The notes under the pieces: model-generated
Database searches by the model: none
Told to the model about the DNA's origin: nothing
Seen by the model: only the letters and a program-made list of their open reading frames with translations
In this document: positions 8,536 through 37,288 of the stretch, in pieces
How the letters are laid out: each line of letters starts with the position of its first letter
Position numbering within the stretch: position 1 is the first letter of the stretch
DNA from: Craspedostauros australis
Taxonomy: Eukaryota
Assembly (NCBI GenBank): GCA_030167865.1
Contig: JALAGF010003472.1
Coordinates: 1 to 39,329 of the forward strand
Length of the DNA: 39,329 bases
Reading direction: 5' to 3'
Position numbers and translations under genes: made by a program

Positions 8536-10201
8536 ATGACGTCCATCGGCACACGCGTTGTTGTTGCGGCTTCCAGCGCACTGCGCAAGGCTGGGTGAGT
8601 CGGAGGAGTCTGTGTTGGCTGCGCAGTGTGCCTTGTTCACGTATTTCCGTGCTTTCTTGTCAATCGCAGCTTGCTCGGAAAGGCGCCAGTTATCGAAGTC
8701 GATGAAGCAATGTGGAAGATGCAGCGACATGCAAGCTCAACTCAAACCAAAACACAATGCCAACATGTGGGCATGCACACAGAAGGCTTGGTGCTGCGAA
8801 GCACTCGTACGATCACAACGCAATCATGTGCTGGATGTGCATTGTTGCGCCAATTCTGAAGATTCCAAAATGATTGGAAGGAATCATGCACAAACTGCGC
8901 AAGAACAGCCTTGCTTGTGCATCTGGAGATATTCCTGACAGAAGCAACCACGAAATCGAATCTAGCCAACATCTCATCAACTCTTGCTTTCTTCCAATCC
9001 TCCATCCATGGACCTTTGATGGCGGCACCTACCTCCTTCTATTCTGCACATCAATGCGAATGAATGAACGCTTGTCTACTACTCCACCCTGCGATCTGGC
9101 GACCCATCGAAAACCAACGGATCTTTGATGAATCACAGTGCGGCAATGGAAAGCTTCGGCAAGCAAATCGAAGTCACAAAATACACAGAGCGGTTGGTCC
9201 CATCCACACGGTTTGTTTCGGTTGATGGCATTGCTCCCGTCGTTTCTGGTGCCAACAACTTCGTTGCTCCGTCGGCGTCTGTCGTTGGAGATGTTTCCAT
9301 CGGAGAGCATTCCAGGTGAGTGACGCAAAGCGCACGCGTGTGGGATGATGTGGTTCCCAAGAAGTATGCACGAGAACAACGTATGAGAGGATGACGGCAT
9401 GTCCGTACTTGTTGAGCACCAGAGTCGGCACTGGAAGACACGCATGATGTCATCATCTCATTGAACAGCCAAGATTGTGCAATGCGAAGATGCCACATGG
9501 GCACCGACCGGGTCCTAAGATGTCGTTTCCCACTTGTTAACGATCTCACATCTCCCATTATGTCTTGCGCGCACATTAGTGTCTGGTACGGTGCCACCGT
9601 CCGCGGAGACGTCAATAAGATCACCGTCGGATCGAAAACCAACATCGGTGACCGTGCCGTGGTCCATGTCGCCAAAATACAAGGAGACCATGCCACCTTC
9701 ATCGGCAGCAACGTCTCCATCCGAGCCGGCGCAGTCGTCCATGCCTGCACGATCAAGGACTTCGTCATGATCGGCGAGTCGGCACAGGTAATGGATGGTG
9801 CCGTCGTCGAATCCAACAGCATCGTCGCACCCGGATCGCTCGTCACGGCGGGAACGGAAGTCCCAAGCGGCGAGCTCTGGTCCGGCGCACCGGCCAAGAA
9901 GGAGCGAGCCTTGACGACGGAGGAGATTGCCTTCATCGCGGAATCCGCCCACGACACGCTCGAACTCGCCTACCTGCACTCCGTGGAGAACTCGAAGGAT
10001 TACAAGCAACTGGTGACGGAGGCGGAGGATCAGCTCGACAAGGAGCTCCGCGAGGAGGGCGAGGCATGGTTCGATCCCAACAGCCCGGATCCGGAGGACG
10101 TTCTGGGACAAGGTGCACCTGGCCGAATCTTCAACTCCACCTTGACCAACCCAGAGGAAGGATTGAAGATGAGAATGGACAGAGCAAAGCAGTCCGCATA
10201 A
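8536..10201 (+). CDS. Mitochondrial-type gamma carbonic anhydrase(-like) protein, complex I CA-domain family; exons 8536-8594, 9139-9315, 9580-10201 (285 aa)
   Basis: Hexapeptide repeats FVAPSASVVGDVSIGEHSSVWYGATVRGDVNKITVG..NIGD..VVHVAK and ELWSGAPAK..R.L. The amphipathic N-terminus ALRKAGAAMESFG resembles that of mitochondrial gamma-CAs. Two GTGAGT..AG introns; 59+177+622=858 nt. Confidence 0.9.
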
Positions 10202-10932: not shown

Positions 10933-11996
10933 TTACTTACGAACGTATTGCGAGCGGTACTCCTCGCGTGCCTTGCGTTCCAGCTCTGGATCGACACGCC
11001 CACTCTGTGGGTCAGTTCCCAGCGGTCTTCGGAACAGCAGGATGTGTGGCTCAGGGCTGAGATTGCCGTACGTCGTCAGTCGTGTTCCATGTTTTAGCAG
11101 GGGTGTTCCATTTCGTGACGCCATGATGTGCGAGAGGCCCGACAAGATGAAAGGCGAAAGATGCGGAGGAAAGAGAGGTGAGAACAGTGCATACTCTGAG
11201 GAATCGTGTGTTGCTGACCAAATTGCTGCTCAATTCATCCCGCAAGCTCCTGGATACACCAACACCTTCGCAAGCTCTCCAGAACAAGTGATGTTCCATT
11301 CTTGCCCATGGCAAAAAATCACATGCAGGCCTTCCCTTCCCTAATGCTCTGCTCAGCACCCAATGCACCAATCAATCAGAAGCATTCTGCAACCAACCCT
11401 GTGGGTTGCATCAAAATGGTACTCACCGGTGGATGGCATAGTGATGCCAACCCCGACTTTGCTGGACACCAATGCCGCGCCATTCGGATTCTGTCAGCAG
11501 TCGGCTCTTTGGCAAAGTCTTGGCCAGATCCTTTGGCAGGATCACGTGACTGGAATCGTGCGTGCGGATTGCAAAGCGAGCAGTTGTCCATGAGGCGAGC
11601 ATCATTGGTATGCCAGAACGACGAGAAGCAATATCACGAGGCAATGTTTGGAGGTGTTCATTATCATGGTGTTGGTACATGCGTGTGTGCGTGTGCGTGC
11701 GTGAAAGTGGACATGAATGCGTGAGAAAGTGAAACATTTGACGCCATTGATGCCATTGAAGCAGGCGACACCAATCTCCGTCCTTGAGACACTTCCTCTC
11801 TCCAGCATCAATGGTGACGGGGCATCTGCACATGCTCGTCTTGCAGCATCAAGAGCATTGACAAGAACAGGCGGCACCCACAAAGTCCATGCGTCGTCAG
11901 CAGCCCCCAACAGTCGAAACCAATCACTCACCGATACTCGTTGGCATCGTCTGCGTATTTCTCGCTGTACTCGATACGTGGGGCGCTGCTGCTCAT
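10933..11996 (-). CDS. CKS1: Cyclin-dependent kinase regulatory subunit CKS1/Suc1; exons 11996-11932, 11549-11427, 11056-10933 (103 aa)
   Basis: Spliced product [21 protein letters not shown]...[37 protein letters not shown] is the canonical CKS signature. Both introns are GTGAGT...CAG; 65+123+124=312 nt. Confidence 0.96.
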
Positions 11997-18512: not shown

Positions 18513-18976
18513 ATTAGGGACGAGGAGGGTCGTCGTAGAGACACGGAATGGTAGTTGTGCTTGTTCGCTGACAAACAGTATAGAATAGAGGATGACTGGT
18601 AGCATAGGAATAGTTGAGCATTTGTACCATTTGCAACATTGTCGGTAAAAGTTGAGTCAAGTTCACGGAATCGAGCTGCGGAGCATGGAGTAATAGTAGT
18701 TGTAGACTACGCGCCAGGTAGCATCAATGGGAAAACACACTTCGCGGAATACCTCCCCAAAATGGTTTGCCACTGGAAATGGATTTTTGGTGGTTATCGG
18801 ATTAGCTTCTCAAACATCAACAAACCCATCACCACCACCACCAAAGATTTTGATTGCCTCTCTTGTGCACATCTCATTCCACATCAGTTTCACGGAGGCA
18901 GTCCTTGGTTGTTCCATTCTTCAGACCTTCCCACCAATCACAACTCGCAGCGACAAGCAACAAGGGATATTACACC

Positions 18977-21165
18977 ATGAGACCTCCTGTGACCTTCCGA
19001 GGCAGCATCGGCGGAGGCGGTCGAATGGGCGGTGGTCGCTTCTCCCGCGGTGGAGGACGCAGAGGGTACAGAGGTGGCGGCAGAGGTGGAGGAAGAGGAT
19101 ACATGCGCGGAGGTGGGCGTGGGCGTGGGCGTGGACGTGGCTACAACAATGGTCGTGGTGGCAGAGGAAGAGGTGGGGGCAGAGGCAGAGGCAATCAGCC
19201 AGTGGAGAACGACTTCGTCGAAGTCATCGGCGAGAAGGCCAAAGCCGCCTCATTGGCTCCCATGCTCAACATTGCTGTGGAGGGATGCTGCCATGGAGAG
19301 CTGGATCGCATTTACCAGCGCTTGCTGGCATACGAGGCTCAGACCAAGACCAAGATCGACCTGCTGCTGTGCTGCGGAGATTTCCAGTCGATACGTTTCC
19401 CCAGCGACTACCACAGCACATCGATACCGCCCAAATACAGACAGCTGGGCTCTTTCCCCAACTACTACTCCGGTCGCAAGAAGGCACCGATCACGACCGT
19501 GTTCATCGGCGGGAATCACGAGGCAGGACAGCCGTTACGGGAGCTGCATTACGGTGGTTGGGTGGCACCGAACATCTACTACTTGGGAACTGCCGGAGTC
19601 CTGCGTTTCGGCGGATTGCGCATTGGAGGTATCAGCGGCATCTACCAACCGTACCACTACAAGCTTGGCCATTTCGGTGAGTCATCCGTTGCTGCGCGAT
19701 CAACGATGGAGCAGCATTGCCAACGCTGCCTTGTTTGCCCTGTATTCATCTTGCATTCCCTTTGGGAACAACTCTGCATTCGTTCGTCTCACACTTCACA
19801 CCCACATAATCCCCATCAACAATTGCACACGCCACAGAACGACCTCCATACGATCGAAAGGCCGTGAAGAGCGTGTATCACGTGCGCAATCTGGATGCCT
19901 TCCGCATGAAGCAAGTTCCCACCCTCGATCGCAATGTGGACATCATGCTCAGCCACGACTGGCCGAATGGAGTCGAGAAGCACGGCGATGCTGAGGGTCT
20001 GATTCGAAAGAAGCCATTCTTCAAGAAAGAGATCAAAGACAACGCATTGGGAAGTCCACCGAACCGCGAGATCCTCGAAAGCTTGCAACCCAAATGGTGG
20101 TTCTCCGCGCATCTCCATGTCAAGTTCCGCGCGACTTTCAAGCATGGGCAGGAGGCGGATCCGGCTGCGGGAGGACGCAAGGACGACTCCGAGAAGAGCA
20201 AGCAGGGAAGCAACCAAACACTGCTGGTTCCTTCGCAAGTAACGCCGACAAAGAAGCCAGGTGCGAGCAGCAAGTTGGATGAAGCGGAGGCTCCACCAGC
20301 TGATGATGGAGCCGACGATGGAGCAGACGACAAGGCGGCCGAAGCTGCACCAACCGAAAATGCTGCAGAAGAAGAAAAGGCGCCTGACACCGCAGCAGAG
20401 AATGATGTTCCCACCACCAATTTCATGTCGCTTGACAAGTGCCTTCCAAGAAGACAGTACCTGTCCGTTCTGCGAGTTCCTTCTGTTGATCCGGACACCA
20501 CGCGAAAGCTGGAGTACGATCCCGAGTGGCTTGCGTTGCTGCGCAAAACCCACCATCTGCTTGTTACAGAGAACAGGGAAGTCACGGTTCCTGATGGCCT
20601 TGTGTCCGACGACCAAGCTGACGCTGAGACCAACACCGACTCCATCAAGGCGGTGACCCAAAGCGATGTCGACTGGGTGATCGAGCAGTTTAAGAAGAAG
20701 CGACCGGAGCACGGTCTGTGCGTCCCGGACAACTTCGTCCCGACGGTTCCCCCGCAGCACCGCGATTCGGGACCGCTTCCCCTCATGGGCAATCCGCAGA
20801 CCGATGAACTATTGGACATACTGGATCTGGAACACAATCTGACCGTCCCGTACGACCCTTCCGCGTATGACAGCAAATACGCCATGGTGTGCGCCGATGT
20901 GCCACCGCCGCCGCCACCACCACGTGTGCCAAATGTGGCGGCAGCAGATGACAACGAGATTGGGATAGACTCCGATGATGATGGCGATGACGATGCAGCG
21001 GGGCAGGATGATAATGAGATCGGGCTCGATTCCGACCTCGATGGCGACGAGGATGACAATGCCGGCGATGACAACGAGATTGGCATTGACTCGGATGATG
21101 GAGATGAAGGCGAAGGCGACGAGGCTCCTGTGAAACGCGCAAGAGTGGGATCCACAACGGATTGA
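18977..21165 (+). CDS. DBR1: RNA lariat debranching enzyme; exons 18977-19676 and 19838-21165 (675 aa)
   Basis: Metallophosphoesterase/DBR1 motifs [27 protein letters not shown]...SVYHVR, SHDWP, WFSAHLH and LDKCLP. Intron GTGAGT...CACAG; 700+1328=2028 nt. Confidence 0.96.
20947..21096 (+). repeat. Three degenerate coding repeats with 60-bp period (DDNEIG[IL]DSD) in the DBR1 C-terminal tail
   Basis: Units start at 20947, 21007 and 21067. Synonymous differences between units, with the peptide conserved. Confidence 0.85.
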
Positions 21166-21502
21166 GCGAAGCGCATATATGGTACTCCAGTGCATTGTTG
21201 ATTGTGTTCGTCAATGGAAAATGGCGGACTTGGGAATGCTCGATTCATGCTCGCTGATCCCAACCAGGCGCGAGAACAAGAGAGCACAGAACTTCCGCAA
21301 GGCCGAGCCATGCTCGTACACTCGTTGAGCGCAATAGAGACTAATCGCAGCTGAGCCTGCATCTCAGCACTCTCGATTAAAACAATAGAAGCAGGCGTGG
21401 CATGCCAACTCACAGCGACCATCAGCATTGGCGAGAAGAGGAGGAGGCCTCGAGAGTTCCGACGCGAGGTTTCTGTTTGCGAGAACATCGACAGGCAAAA
21501 AG

Positions 21503-21575
21503 TGGACACTGCCGGAATCGAACCGGCGACCTTCCGCATGCAAAGCGGACGCTCTGCCAACTGAGCTAAGCGCCC
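21503..21575 (-). tRNA. tRNA-Ala(UGC)
   Basis: GGGCGCT TA GCTC AGTTGGCA GAGC G TCCGC TT-TGC-AT GCGGA AGGTC GCCGG TTCGATT CCGGC AGTGTCC A. Full cloverleaf with the G3:U70 Ala determinant and a downstream TTTTT terminator. Confidence 0.97.
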
Positions 21576-34607: not shown

Positions 34608-35783
34608 CTAGTAGATGCCCGTCGACTGTCCCCACTCGGTGGATGCAATGTAGTTCTCCAATGCACCGCCCAAGTACACCGATGCGGCGCTCACCAACAG
34701 TACAATCCACAACGGTGTCGACTTCGTCTTCTTGTTCACGCTCAGCACGAATGGAACCGTGTACGAAAAGAAACCGAAGCATGAGGTCATCAGATGCAAG
34801 GCCTGGATGCCGGTGGATTGGATGCGGGATGCATTCCTCACGATGTTGAATGACTGGACGAAGTACAGCCATGGCCAGTGGCTGCCGAAGGCGCTTCCCA
34901 CGGCATGCGCACCAAGGCCGGATGCCAATCCTTGGCATGAGAACACGATGGGCTTCACTGACTGGTTCCATCCCAAGATGAATGGAACCAACGCCACCAG
35001 CACGGTCGGGAGGAAGGCCAGCATGACCTTCTTGGTGTTCGTTGGCGTGATGGCAGCAGCCAGGCCACTCATGCCGCCGCACAATCCCAGGCAGAAGACG
35101 AAGTTCGTCCATCCAGATGATGATTCCGATTTGGGCAGGTACACCCATCCGTCGAATTCGTGACCGACGATTTCTGCGAAGTTGCCGATGATTGTGATGA
35201 TGGCACCGATGGCCCAGAAGATGTCGGAGAGCGTTTGGTCTCGGCCTGTCCAAATCGCTGGCTGCTTTTTGTTCTGCGCGTTGTCGTGGTCGTTGGTCTC
35301 CTTGGCAGCAGCAGTGGCGTCGTTGTCCTTCTTGAGATCCCTCAAGGCCGGTCGCAGGATGGAAACCATGGAGAGCGGCGTGAGGCTGTTGAAGAGATGG
35401 ACCGCACACAATATGGGCCACAACGGTTCTGACATCCGTTCATCGAGTCTGGATTCCATGAGTGGCTCCAGTTGATAGGAGATGGCGAGCGATGCCAGGA
35501 AGCACGTGGCGATGGACTGGAACCATTCCAGGGTGAGCGCGGAGCTTCTGAGCGTCTGGACGGCCCCGTAGATGTAGAATGTCGCCAGGATGGGGACGAC
35601 GACCTCCAAAGACAGCAGATTTCGGAGGCCATCATGCAGCTGGGCATCATTCTGCTTGTCGTTGATGTGCATGGTGGTACCGATGGTGGTTGCCGTGATG
35701 AGGATGATGGCAGAGTTCATCTTTGCTGTGGTCGACATGGATGTTGTTGTTGTTGCTGGTGGTGTAGAGGAGGTGGCTTTCAT
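34608..35783 (-). CDS. Hypothetical multi-pass membrane protein (up to 391 aa)
   Basis: Intact long ORF with coding-like codon use and many hydrophobic segments. Start uncertain (several in-frame ATGs). Family not recognised. Confidence 0.72.
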   Translation of the reverse strand: MKATSSTPPATTTTSMSTTAKMNSAIILITATTIGTTMHINDKQNDAQLHDGLRNLLSLEVVVPILATFYIYGAVQTLRSSALTLEWFQSIATCFLASLAISYQLEPLMESRLDERMSEPLWPILCAVHLFNSLTPLSMVSILRPALRDLKKDNDATAAAKETNDHDNAQNKKQPAIWTGRDQTLSDIFWAIGAIITIIGNFAEIVGHEFDGWVYLPKSESSSGWTNFVFCLGLCGGMSGLAAAITPTNTKKVMLAFLPTVLVALVPFILGWNQSVKPIVFSCQGLASGLGAHAVGSAFGSHWPWLYFVQSFNIVRNASRIQSTGIQALHLMTSCFGFFSYTVPFVLSVNKKTKSTPLWIVLLVSAASVYLGGALENYIASTEWGQSTGIY

Positions 35784-36144
35784 GGTTGTAGAACTGAGGT
35801 TGTCGGTTCGTCCTGTTCTGTGCTGTACTATTATCGTTTGTGTGTTGCTTTGTTGGTGTTGCTTTGTTGCTTGTTTCGATTTGTGAGCATTCCGGAGGCA
35901 TCGCAGTTCAACAGGCCCGACTTCTCTCCCATCACATCCATCCCCTCAATTGCCCATAGGGTTGACGTGGTAAATCATGACCGTGCTGTGTGCACGAGTG
36001 CGTATGCATGCTCGGTATTGGATTCCCAAGACCACACCGCAAAGATCGCCACGACTTCTGCGTTCGCGTCAATGCCAGCATGTTCTCACAAAGAATGAAC
36101 CTGTGCGGGGAGTTCGTTGTCTGCAGCGTCGCTGGTTTGGTTGT

Positions 36145-36237
36145 TGTTAAAATAGCGCGCTGCGGAACCGAACCACGGAGCCAGTCCACGCCCTGCATGA
36201 ACACAAGAAATTAACGCTTATAACCCATGTCGCGACA
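36145..36237 (-). repeat. 3' LTR of the TRIM (93 bp)
   Basis: Identical to 36409-36501 except C36168 vs T36432 (plus-strand bases); adjacent to the PPT. Confidence 0.92.
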
Positions 36238-36245
36238 CCCTCCCT
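36238..36245 (-). other. Polypurine tract of the TRIM
   Basis: AGGGAGGG on the minus strand immediately precedes the TG of the 3' LTR. Confidence 0.8.
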
Positions 36246-36395
36246 AATTCTTGGATTCATGCCCTTGAGCCCCCCTATCATGAGGACCCCCCACACTCTA
36301 TCTTTATACTGCCGCTGTAGGCAGTCGGCAAGTTTCGGGTGTTTCTGTGTGTTTTCGTAGCAGGGGTGGGTACCAGCCGACGGAATCGAACCTTA

Positions 36396-36408
36396 GGCCA
36401 CGCTACCA
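36396..36408 (-). other. Primer-binding site, probably complementary to the initiator tRNA-Met 3' end
   Basis: Plus strand GGCCACGCTACCA is a tRNA-like 3' end with CCA, discriminator A and U72, as in eukaryotic initiator tRNAs ending ..GCUACCA. Confidence 0.8.
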
Positions 36409-36501
36409 TGTTAAAATAGCGCGCTGCGGAATCGAACCACGGAGCCAGTCCACGCCCTGCATGAACACAAGAAATTAACGCTTATAACCCATGTCGCGAC
36501 A
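36409..36501 (-). repeat. 5' LTR of the TRIM (93 bp)
   Basis: Minus strand reads TGTCGCGACATGGGTTATAAG...GGTTCGATTCC...TATTTTAACA, adjacent to the PBS. Confidence 0.92.
36428..36438 (-). promoter_or_regulatory. Pol III B-box consensus (GGTTCGATTCC) inside the 5' LTR
   Basis: Identical to the B-box of both tRNA-Ala genes in this window. The 3' LTR copy (36164-36174) reads GGTTCGGTTCC. Function not demonstrated. Confidence 0.6.
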
Positions 36502-37215
36502 GGTTGTGACCAACATGGCGAGGAGTTGCGCACAGTCTTTCCTCCCAACATCAATGCTTCATGCTGTGTCGTGATTCGTTGGTGTGACTGACACGTCGCC
36601 AATCTGCCTTGAACCGGTGGTTGCCTGGCACGGTGCCGTACATAGACTCGCGCCAACTAGTGCTCTGTCTATGTGTGTACTCGTATTGCCTGTTCCTGTC
36701 ATCACGAGGAACCTTAGCCAATACGAAGTGTACGGTATACTCTTGGCGTCGTGTACTGATAGTCTATCTCAGAGGCGGTACATCCGTGTCGAGTGCAGTA
36801 CGAGTAGGTAGAGTCGGCTGCTATGTGGCGTATTAGATGTGCTCGTACAGATATCAGGAGCATCGCTAACCCACCCTCTCCCCCCCCCAGCCTCGGATAC
36901 CGTATTGCAGCACATCTCAGGACAAAGATGAGACACACAGCACAGCAATAGGTTGAAGAGCGTGTCGAGTAGACGAAGGTGGCAGAGATGACTGAGGATT
37001 TGCTGGAGTCGGGACCCAATGAATGGGAAAGGAATGTGATGCGGCAATCGAAAGGCTTGGTAAAGACGTGCCAAAAGGAACAGGCAACCTACCCTTCGAA
37101 TGCATAGCATGATAAGATAGATAGTATTAGTACGAAGATGATGGCTTCGCTCACTCCACCATCGAGCAAAAGTGAAGCAGAGATTGTGCCTGGAGTTGTG
37201 TAATTCAACAAAAAG

Positions 37216-37288
37216 TGGACATTGCCGGAATCGAACCGGCGACCTTATGCATGCTAAGCATACGCGCTGCCAACTGCGCCAAACGCCC
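37216..37288 (-). tRNA. tRNA-Ala(AGC)
   Basis: GGGCGTT TG GCGC AGTTGGCA GCGC G TATGC TT-AGC-AT GCATA AGGTC GCCGG TTCGATT CCGGC AATGTCC A. G3:U70 pair; downstream TTTTT. Confidence 0.97.

Follow-up and report, generated by a model that had tools for sequence, protein, structure and literature searches.

A probable TRIM-class LTR retrotransposon of 357 nt in a nuclear contig of the diatom Craspedostauros australis

Structure of a miniature element with long terminal repeats

The stretch of DNA analysed here, referred to below as the window, is contig JALAGF010003472.1 of Craspedostauros australis (assembly GCA_030167865.1; 39,329 nt, forward strand), and it contains between positions 36139 and 36507 a short sequence with the layout of a long terminal repeat (LTR) retrotransposon. 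Two direct repeats of 93 nt (family D1), located at 36145-36237 and 36409-36501 and identical at 92 of their 93 bases, enclose an interior of 171 nt (36238-36408), so that the element is 93+171+93 = 357 nt long, and the hexanucleotide GGTTGT directly abuts the outer edge of both repeats, at 36139-36144 on the left and at 36502-36507 on the right, as a target-site duplication (TSD). The sole mismatch between the repeats is a C at 36168 versus a T at 36432. Read on the plus strand the repeat runs TGTT...GACA, which gives TG..CA ends on either strand, and its boundaries are exact, since the bases that adjoin the two copies, on the inner as on the outer side, are not the same. This LTR pair is the longest of five direct-repeat families in the window, the next being a pair of tRNA-Ala genes.

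Both priming signals lie on the minus strand, and neither is present in the opposite orientation of the element. The minus-strand order is ACAACC / TGTCGCG...TTAACA / TGGTAGCGTGGCC ... AAGAATTAGGGAGGG / TGTCGCG...TTAACA / ACAACC, that is, the 5' LTR (36409-36501, minus strand) is directly followed by TGGTAGCGTGGCC and the 3' LTR (36145-36237, minus strand) is directly preceded by AAGAATTAGGGAGGG. The primer-binding site (PBS), TGGTAGCGTGG(CC), occupies 36396-36408 (minus strand), directly downstream of the 5' LTR, and the polypurine tract (PPT) occupies 36238-36252 (minus strand), with purines at 12 of its 15 positions and at all of the last eight. A TATAA at LTR positions 16-20 (36482-36486, minus strand, and again in the 3' LTR) can be read from the sequence as a putative core promoter for RNA polymerase II (Pol II). 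The succession of duplication, LTR, interior, LTR and duplication set out in an original prediction, with 93-nt LTRs, a 171-nt interior, 357 nt in all and GGTTGT as the duplication, matches to the base, and its placement of the two priming signals on the minus strand, TGGTAGCGTGG adjoining the 5' LTR and AAGAATTAGGGAGGG the 3' LTR, agrees with what was found.

The interior (36238-36408, minus strand) is non-coding. None of the six frames in or across the element gave a Pfam match at E<=0.1, the stop-to-stop frames of the interior are all short, and no reverse transcriptase, integrase or gag family was found among the 131 window frames of at least 110 aa. The element does therefore encode nothing, as had been proposed, and, having no genes of its own, it would be copied in trans by the enzymes of another element. 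The proposed architecture of a non-autonomous terminal-repeat retrotransposon in miniature (TRIM) is likewise borne out by the terminal repeats, the PBS, the PPT, the TSD and the lack of coding capacity. TG..CA repeats, a PBS and a PPT in one orientation, a TSD of 4-6 nt and a length under 1 kb without gag or pol are among the features by which a TRIM is recognised, and they are present here. In the original definition of TRIMs the LTRs range from about 100 to 250 nt, and 93 nt falls just below.

By our own arithmetic, the chance odds are 1/4096 for the identity of the 6-nt flanks, 1/256 for the TG..CA ends and 1/256 for a run of eight purines abutting an LTR, and the joint occurrence of the three is far beyond chance. 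It could be the case that the duplication comprises 5 nt plus one coincidental base. A single mismatch in 93 nt, i.e. an LTR divergence of about 1%, indicates a young insertion. We consider therefore, with a probability of about 0.8, that this is a complete and recently inserted non-autonomous LTR retrotransposon of the TRIM class, within the size range of the SMART and Helenus elements, with the minus strand as its sense strand.

Occurrence of the element outside of the window

Matches to the element were found in one public sequencing run of another organism (X1), which was read as contigs and from which 8 of the 12 matching contigs were listed; two other public runs (X2 and X3) had no matching contigs, and no RNA run with the element was listed. 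X1 holds 0.31 of the sampled words from 36000-36650. Its contigs tile, with 30-nt overlaps, over 36208-36274, 36245-36301, 36272-36305, 36276-36332 and 36303-36501, thus leading from the edge of the 3' LTR through the PPT, the interior and the PBS to the end of the LTR, with 0-2 differences per contig from the window. The depth of the element contigs is 30.8-147.4, versus 16 for a contig that matches 36718-37100, and that of the contigs within the interior (36238-36408) is 104-140, versus 147 for the LTR-bearing contig. Two pairs of 57-nt variant contigs are present, with depths of 134/45 and 104/59. The outer edge of the LTR, 36501, is precisely where one contig ends, and another runs from the LTR edge into 255 nt unlike the flank in the window. 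The window flanks 35600-36160 and 36518-36670 have no X1 cover, an absence that when taken alone carries no weight as evidence.

The short form occurs, in consequence, in a second organism, in more than one sequence version, and joined at least once to a sequence that is not that of this locus. This pattern fits a dispersed multi-copy family, for which it argues, and is hard to square with a local duplication or with a single deletion derivative.

In the contig that leaves the LTR edge at 36502, the 30 letters shown are pyrimidine-rich on the plus strand and thus purine-rich upstream of the LTR in the sense direction. What lies beyond 36502 in this contig could thus belong not to a genomic flank but to the PPT side of another element that shares this LTR, possibly a partner or a sister family. 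Among the contigs listed, the only other one on the 1.5-kb stretch is that at 36718-37100, which has 37 differences from the window (about 90% identity), with five inserted T in a C-run at 36880-36884. It could come from a diverged relative that carries a near-identical element family, from a paralogous stretch, or from a very divergent haplotype.

tRNA-like modules in the LTRs and the interior

The earlier account of the LTRs and the interior was right as to their structure and overlooked that they contain modules resembling the 3' half of a tRNA gene. The LTR contains the sense-strand 12-mer GGTTCGATTCCG, which recurs 16 nt into the interior (direct-repeat family D2); the T-arms of the two tRNA-Ala genes of the window have this same 12-mer, as detected by blastn. 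The LTR carries at positions 64-74 a perfect box B, GGTTCGATTCC. In the 5' LTR the module (36413-36441, minus strand; B-box at 36428-36438) is made up of the T-stem strand CGTGG, the loop TTCGATT, the second T-stem strand CCGCA, seven nucleotides (GCGCGCT), an A and TTTT, and the terminal AACA follows. The module of the interior (36367-36395, minus strand; B-box at 36382-36392) reads TAAGG / TTCGATT / CCGTC / GGCTGGT / A / CCCA. The last base of each of the three tRNA genes that ARAGORN finds in the window is directly followed by T4-T5, as in the LTR module. In the module of the 3' LTR (36149-36177, minus strand; a 92% copy in family D2) the B-box is mutated to GGTTCGGTTCC, the one-base mismatch between the LTRs falling inside box B, and the resulting G at 36168 is probably derived, because the X1 contig agrees there with the 5' LTR.

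The box B pattern GGTTCGANNCC, for which we calculate a chance expectation of about 0.3 in the window (nine specified bases, both strands), occurs six times: in the three tRNA genes, twice in the element, and once at 10068. This last match (10068-10078, plus strand) lies inside a hexapeptide-repeat open reading frame (ORF; 9416-10198) and is probably due to chance within a coding sequence. A search of Rfam gave a weak match of the tRNA clan (transfer-messenger RNA, tmRNA) at 36386-36442, far below the gathering score, with an E value of 0.013 when 391 nt were searched and of 0.083 when 2.5 kb were searched; the Rfam tRNA model did not match the element. Judging from the sequence, the T-arm, the acceptor-like strand and T4 are a real signal, whereas a complete tRNA-like LTR goes beyond the evidence.

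In predicted folds the acceptor-like strand of the LTR pairs with the PBS in a stem of 9 bp, which counts as an observation only, because the fold energies are no better than those of shuffled sequences. Hammerhead ribozyme families gave no Rfam match on either strand at E values up to 10, and the possibility that the element is a retrozyme, with a hammerhead ribozyme in each LTR, was rejected.

Comparison with known miniature LTR elements

The comparisons below refer to the portions of the cited papers that were at hand. SMART (FRetro129), an element of grasses, has 85-nt LTRs and a 122-nt interior, 292 bp in all, with TGT..ACA ends and a 5-nt duplication, and its copia partner was found through similarity of the interior (PMC3281118). 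Both SMART and the diatom element are miniature and protein-free, begin with TGT and end with ACA, possess a PBS as well as a PPT, and are located near genes. They have no sequence relation, they differ in the duplication (5 nt versus 6 nt) and in the host (grass versus diatom), and the tRNA-like module of the diatom element has no counterpart described for SMART in those portions of the paper (PMC3281118). The element had been presented as very small, and at 357 bp it is so, but not uniquely, given the 292 bp of SMART, which exclude that it is the smallest LTR element known, and the 311 bp from which Helenus elements start.

Helenus elements (TRIMp3; Kojima 2024, PMC10886601) have 311-1263 bp and LTRs with a tRNA-like sequence, in which a conserved box B (GGTTC) and the box A motifs TRGCY and YGG are found; they possess a PBS, a PPT and a 4-5-nt duplication, and one of them, Helenus-1_SMo, combines an LTR of 120 nt with an interior of 85 nt. 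The fungal ones have links to copia, and for some the primer is the 3' end of the initiator tRNA (tRNA-iMet) (PMC10886601). By analogy of parts, Helenus is the closest functional analogue of the diatom element, with which it shares the box B in the LTR, the PBS, the PPT and the size range. Unlike Helenus, the diatom element shows only a T-arm, an acceptor-like strand and T4, and has a second T-arm module in the interior; moreover, its LTR acceptor-like strand can pair with the PBS, whereas Kojima saw no such complementarity in Helenus, according to the portions at hand. Membership of Helenus is not established, because the motifs of box A are lacking. The hosts in Table 1 of that paper are fungi, animals and Selaginella only, and six diatom or stramenopile names gave no matches in its supplement (PMC10886601). 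Cassandra, a TRIM of 565-860 bp known from plants only, has LTRs that carry a 5S-rRNA-like sequence for which transcription by RNA polymerase III (Pol III) has been reported (PMC10886601). In both Cassandra and the diatom element each LTR contains a module originating from a small-RNA gene, with a terminator, and a role of Pol III in the latter may be suggested by analogy; the module of Cassandra is 5S-derived and that of the diatom element tRNA-like.

With regard to diatoms, 27 repeats (7,291 bp) are classified as putative TRIM or large retrotransposon derivative (TRIM/LARD) in the Phatr3 annotation of Phaeodactylum tricornutum (PMC5859163). The TRIM class is thus not new to diatoms, and the claim of an unannotated family of retroelements has to be restricted in this sense. 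The Phatr3 repeats represent a class assigned by a pipeline, with no PBS, PPT or duplication described in the portions at hand, and are likened here by description alone (PMC5859163). Our literature search, which left Repbase and Dfam outside, found no report of a structurally complete TRIM in a diatom, and none of a TRIM whose LTRs are tRNA-like in diatoms or stramenopiles. The dominant autonomous LTR elements of diatoms are the CoDi elements of the Ty1/copia type, which have TG/CA ends in 23 of 26 families and recent insertions (PMC2806351), and copia-type elements make up most of the annotated transposable elements of P. tricornutum (PMC2806351, PMC5859163). Two diatom copia elements have duplications of 4 and 5 nt (PMC2806351). 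The CoDi elements, kilobases long and autonomous, are compared here by description, the portions of the main text at hand giving no PBS data (PMC2806351), and are the most plausible source of enzymes for the diatom element.

Miniature LTR elements are systematically missed. In one diatom genome paper LTRharvest was run with 100 nt as the shortest LTR and 1500 nt as the shortest distance between LTRs, settings that exclude the 357-bp element.

Primer and proposed life cycle

The PBS implies a tRNA that ends in ...GCUACCA, that is, one with an A1:U72 pair, which is a hallmark of the eukaryotic initiator tRNA-Met. The first eight bases of the PBS are those of the PBS of yeast Ty1. In the full text of the literature these 8 nt gave unrelated primer-type matches only, among the 15 matches listed. 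Since the PBS looks of the initiator-tRNA type, the partner would most likely be a Ty1/copia-type, CoDi-like element. None of the three tRNAs of the window is complementary to the PBS. An initiator-type tRNA with a PBS-complementary 3' end was found at one locus (L001), in a metagenome contig of 127 kb, where two tRNA-Met genes (271-343 and 365-439) lie 21 nt apart; in the first of them the anticodon stem-loop is of the initiator type, the T-loop reads ATCGAAT and the 3' end is CCACGCTA. An extension of the PBS pairing into the T-arm of the primer was rejected, because position 61 of the tRNA would then have to be U, whereas nearly all tRNAs have C there.

A life cycle in which every enzyme is borrowed can be proposed. 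The RNA (R-U5-PBS-interior-PPT-U3-R) would begin in the 5' LTR and end in the 3' LTR, and it would be packaged by the Gag protein of an autonomous partner located elsewhere in the genome. Minus-strand DNA would be primed at TGGTAGCGTGG by a tRNA with the 3' end ...CCACGCUACCA, the primer tRNA being expected to end in ...CCACGCUA(CCA), and plus-strand DNA would be primed at the purine tract. Two strand transfers would rebuild identical LTRs, and the integrase of the partner would insert the copy by a staggered cut that leaves a 6-nt (or 5-nt) duplication. The TATAA in the LTR sequence suggests ordinary transcription by Pol II. On the analogy of Helenus, for which this has been proposed, and of Cassandra, for which Pol III transcription is reported, the B-box and T4 may serve to recruit the transcription factor TFIIIC and Pol III, or to end a transcript; a Pol III transcript would stop before the PBS, unless leaky, because T4 lies inside the 5' LTR.

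Nature of the element and alternative explanations

The element could in principle have arisen a single time, by internal deletion from an autonomous LTR retrotransposon, and be restricted to this locus, without a propagating family. A single copy is present in the window, and some TRIMs do arise by internal deletion of autonomous elements (Kojima, PMC10886601), but the short interior forms a contiguous path in X1, with variants and at the depths given above, and the absence of the window flanks from X1 places the short form away from this locus in more than one version; we regard this origin as improbable. A still smaller chance is assigned to a local duplication, namely a partial tandem repeat with a period of 264 (1.35 copies) that would mimic an LTR-interior-LTR arrangement. 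The repeats do have a spacing of 264 nt, the window contains no other copy, and TRIMs and tandem repeats can look alike. Slippage at a microhomology, on the other hand, gives unit-unit and not a repeat pair flanked outside by the same 6-mer, and neither the TG..CA ends, nor the TGG... after one repeat, nor the purine run before the other would be expected, nor would the sequence recur in X1 with a different outer junction.

A refinement of the TRIM assignment, rather than an alternative to it, would be that the element is a true Helenus-type TRIMp3, the LTR being the degenerate head of a tRNA or a short interspersed nuclear element (SINE) in which boxes A and B drive Pol III and T4 is the terminator. 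It would be in line with this that the perfect B-box is followed by 7 nt, an A and TTTT, arranged as at the end of a tRNA gene, that 357 bp falls within the Helenus range of 311-1263 bp, and that a PBS for the tRNA-iMet 3' end is also found in some fungal Helenus. ARAGORN made no tRNA call in the LTRs at the default or the 95% threshold, and at 90% it called an 89-nt long-arm tRNA-like fold in both, with 0.7 calls per shuffled 39-kb window. A tRNA-Pro called at 11504-11582 (plus strand) at the same threshold fits this false-call rate. The T-arm suffices to explain the fold call: with the T-arm (17 nt) fixed and the rest shuffled, calls were obtained in 46 of 500 sequences for the 3' LTR and in 61 of 500 for the 5' LTR, and the reading of the LTR as a whole tRNA was not upheld beyond the T-arm, as 9-12% of the shuffles that keep it were also called. 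Rfam gave only the weak tmRNA-clan match and none to its tRNA model, the box A motifs TRGCY and YGG are not both found at a workable position, and the only TGGCT in the LTR lies 6 nt before the T-stem. In addition, a Pol III transcript would be halted in the 5' LTR, upstream of the PBS, by the T4 (LTR positions 86-89), and the TATAA points to Pol II. A Helenus-type TRIMp3 seems to us possible, yet doubtful.

Several results weigh against the element as interpreted here, or against parts of that interpretation, besides the shuffles just described. No further copy or fragment of the element was found in the window, where blastn with a word size of 7 gave matches of 11-19 nt only, and the LTR, LTR-PBS and PPT-LTR strings had no exact matches in metagenome, prokaryote-genome and viral contigs. 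The case for a family comes from the X1 contigs, and no direct view was had of copy number, of other TSDs, of solo LTRs or of an empty site. The depth in X1 could reflect expression instead of copy number, the library being possibly of RNA, and the contigs listed offer one alternative outer junction, in a contig graph that cannot show target duplications. The autonomous partner was not found, the window containing no reverse transcriptase, integrase or gag, and the duplication of 6 nt differs from the 5 nt typical of copia. The primer tRNA is unmatched, since L001 is probably prokaryotic or archaeal and says nothing on diatoms. As for the tRNA-like modules, the best candidate for a box A (LTR positions 3-13) agrees at 6 of 9 specified positions and leaves TRGCY unmatched, and the fold energy is no better than that of shuffles (z of -0.82 for the element and of -0.07 for the LTR-PBS region).

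Taking the observations together, a bolder reading can be put forward, which we hold to be less probable than not by a wide measure, and somewhat less probable than the Helenus assignment. This would be the first stramenopile TRIM built of parts of small-RNA genes, in which the modules serve TFIIIC and Pol III or provide tRNA-like ends, and whose family is near-identical in two genomes. The 93-nt LTR may consist of a promoter stub and the last third of a tRNA gene (T-arm, acceptor strand, discriminator A and T4), and the interior module, located after the PBS, may end in A-CCCA like a matured tRNA. Such tRNA-like RNA ends might aid packaging or priming, the acceptor-like strand of the LTR pairing with the PBS. 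Two diatom genomes that differ by about 10% in the neighbouring DNA may have almost the same element family, and, if the X1 contig at 36718-37100 is orthologous to the window, this would imply that the family has been active very recently in both genomes, that it is under strong constraint, or that it was transferred horizontally.

A complete and apparently young TRIM would provide a marker for recent retrotransposition in diatoms, its PBS, PPT and LTR ends would give a handle on which autonomous element is active, and it would be a compact vehicle for studies of insertion polymorphism. If the tRNA-like modules are functional, the borrowing of parts of Pol III genes known from Cassandra and Helenus would reach a third eukaryotic supergroup.

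Insertion site and other features of the window

When the element and one GGTTGT were removed, no frame of more than 87 aa was restored, which indicates that the insertion is intergenic and speaks against the disruption of a gene. Some 360 nt separate the element from the ATG (35783) of an ORF at 34608-35783, upstream of which it lies in the same orientation, and by its position it could affect the promoter of that ORF. Just upstream of the same ORF, at 35842-35869, the 14-mer GTGTTGCTTTGTTG is tandemly doubled without any difference (direct-repeat family D3). The distance from the element to the tRNA-Ala(AGC) gene at 37215-37288 is 713 nt. The two tRNA-Ala genes of the minus strand, with the anticodons TGC and AGC, lie in the stretches 21496-21575 and 37209-37288, which show 88% identity across 80 nt, a likeness that takes in a T-rich trailer of 6 nt, and 15.7 kb lie between them.

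The window is nuclear eukaryotic DNA, with Pfam matches to ERO1, CKS, a mitochondrial carrier, a lariat-debranching enzyme, TAF2 and a cap guanine-N2 methyltransferase. Those homologues of the mitochondrial carrier that bear names come from raphid pennate diatoms (Cylindrotheca, Nitzschia, Pseudo-nitzschia and Mayamaea) and reach at most 64% identity, a close relative being absent from the protein database searched, in agreement with the description of the genome as diatom-like that had been given from the sequence. The lariat-debranching gene (18854-21162, plus strand) appears to be divided between two frames, of which 18854-19864 contains the Metallophos domain and 19810-21162 the C-terminal domain of DBR1, a layout that suggests an intron or a frameshift. 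Within the second of these frames, downstream of the match to the DBR1 C-terminal domain (residues 202-342), there is a repeat at 20947-21113 consisting of three 47-nt copies with a spacing of 60 nt, which are 74-81% identical to the reference copy.

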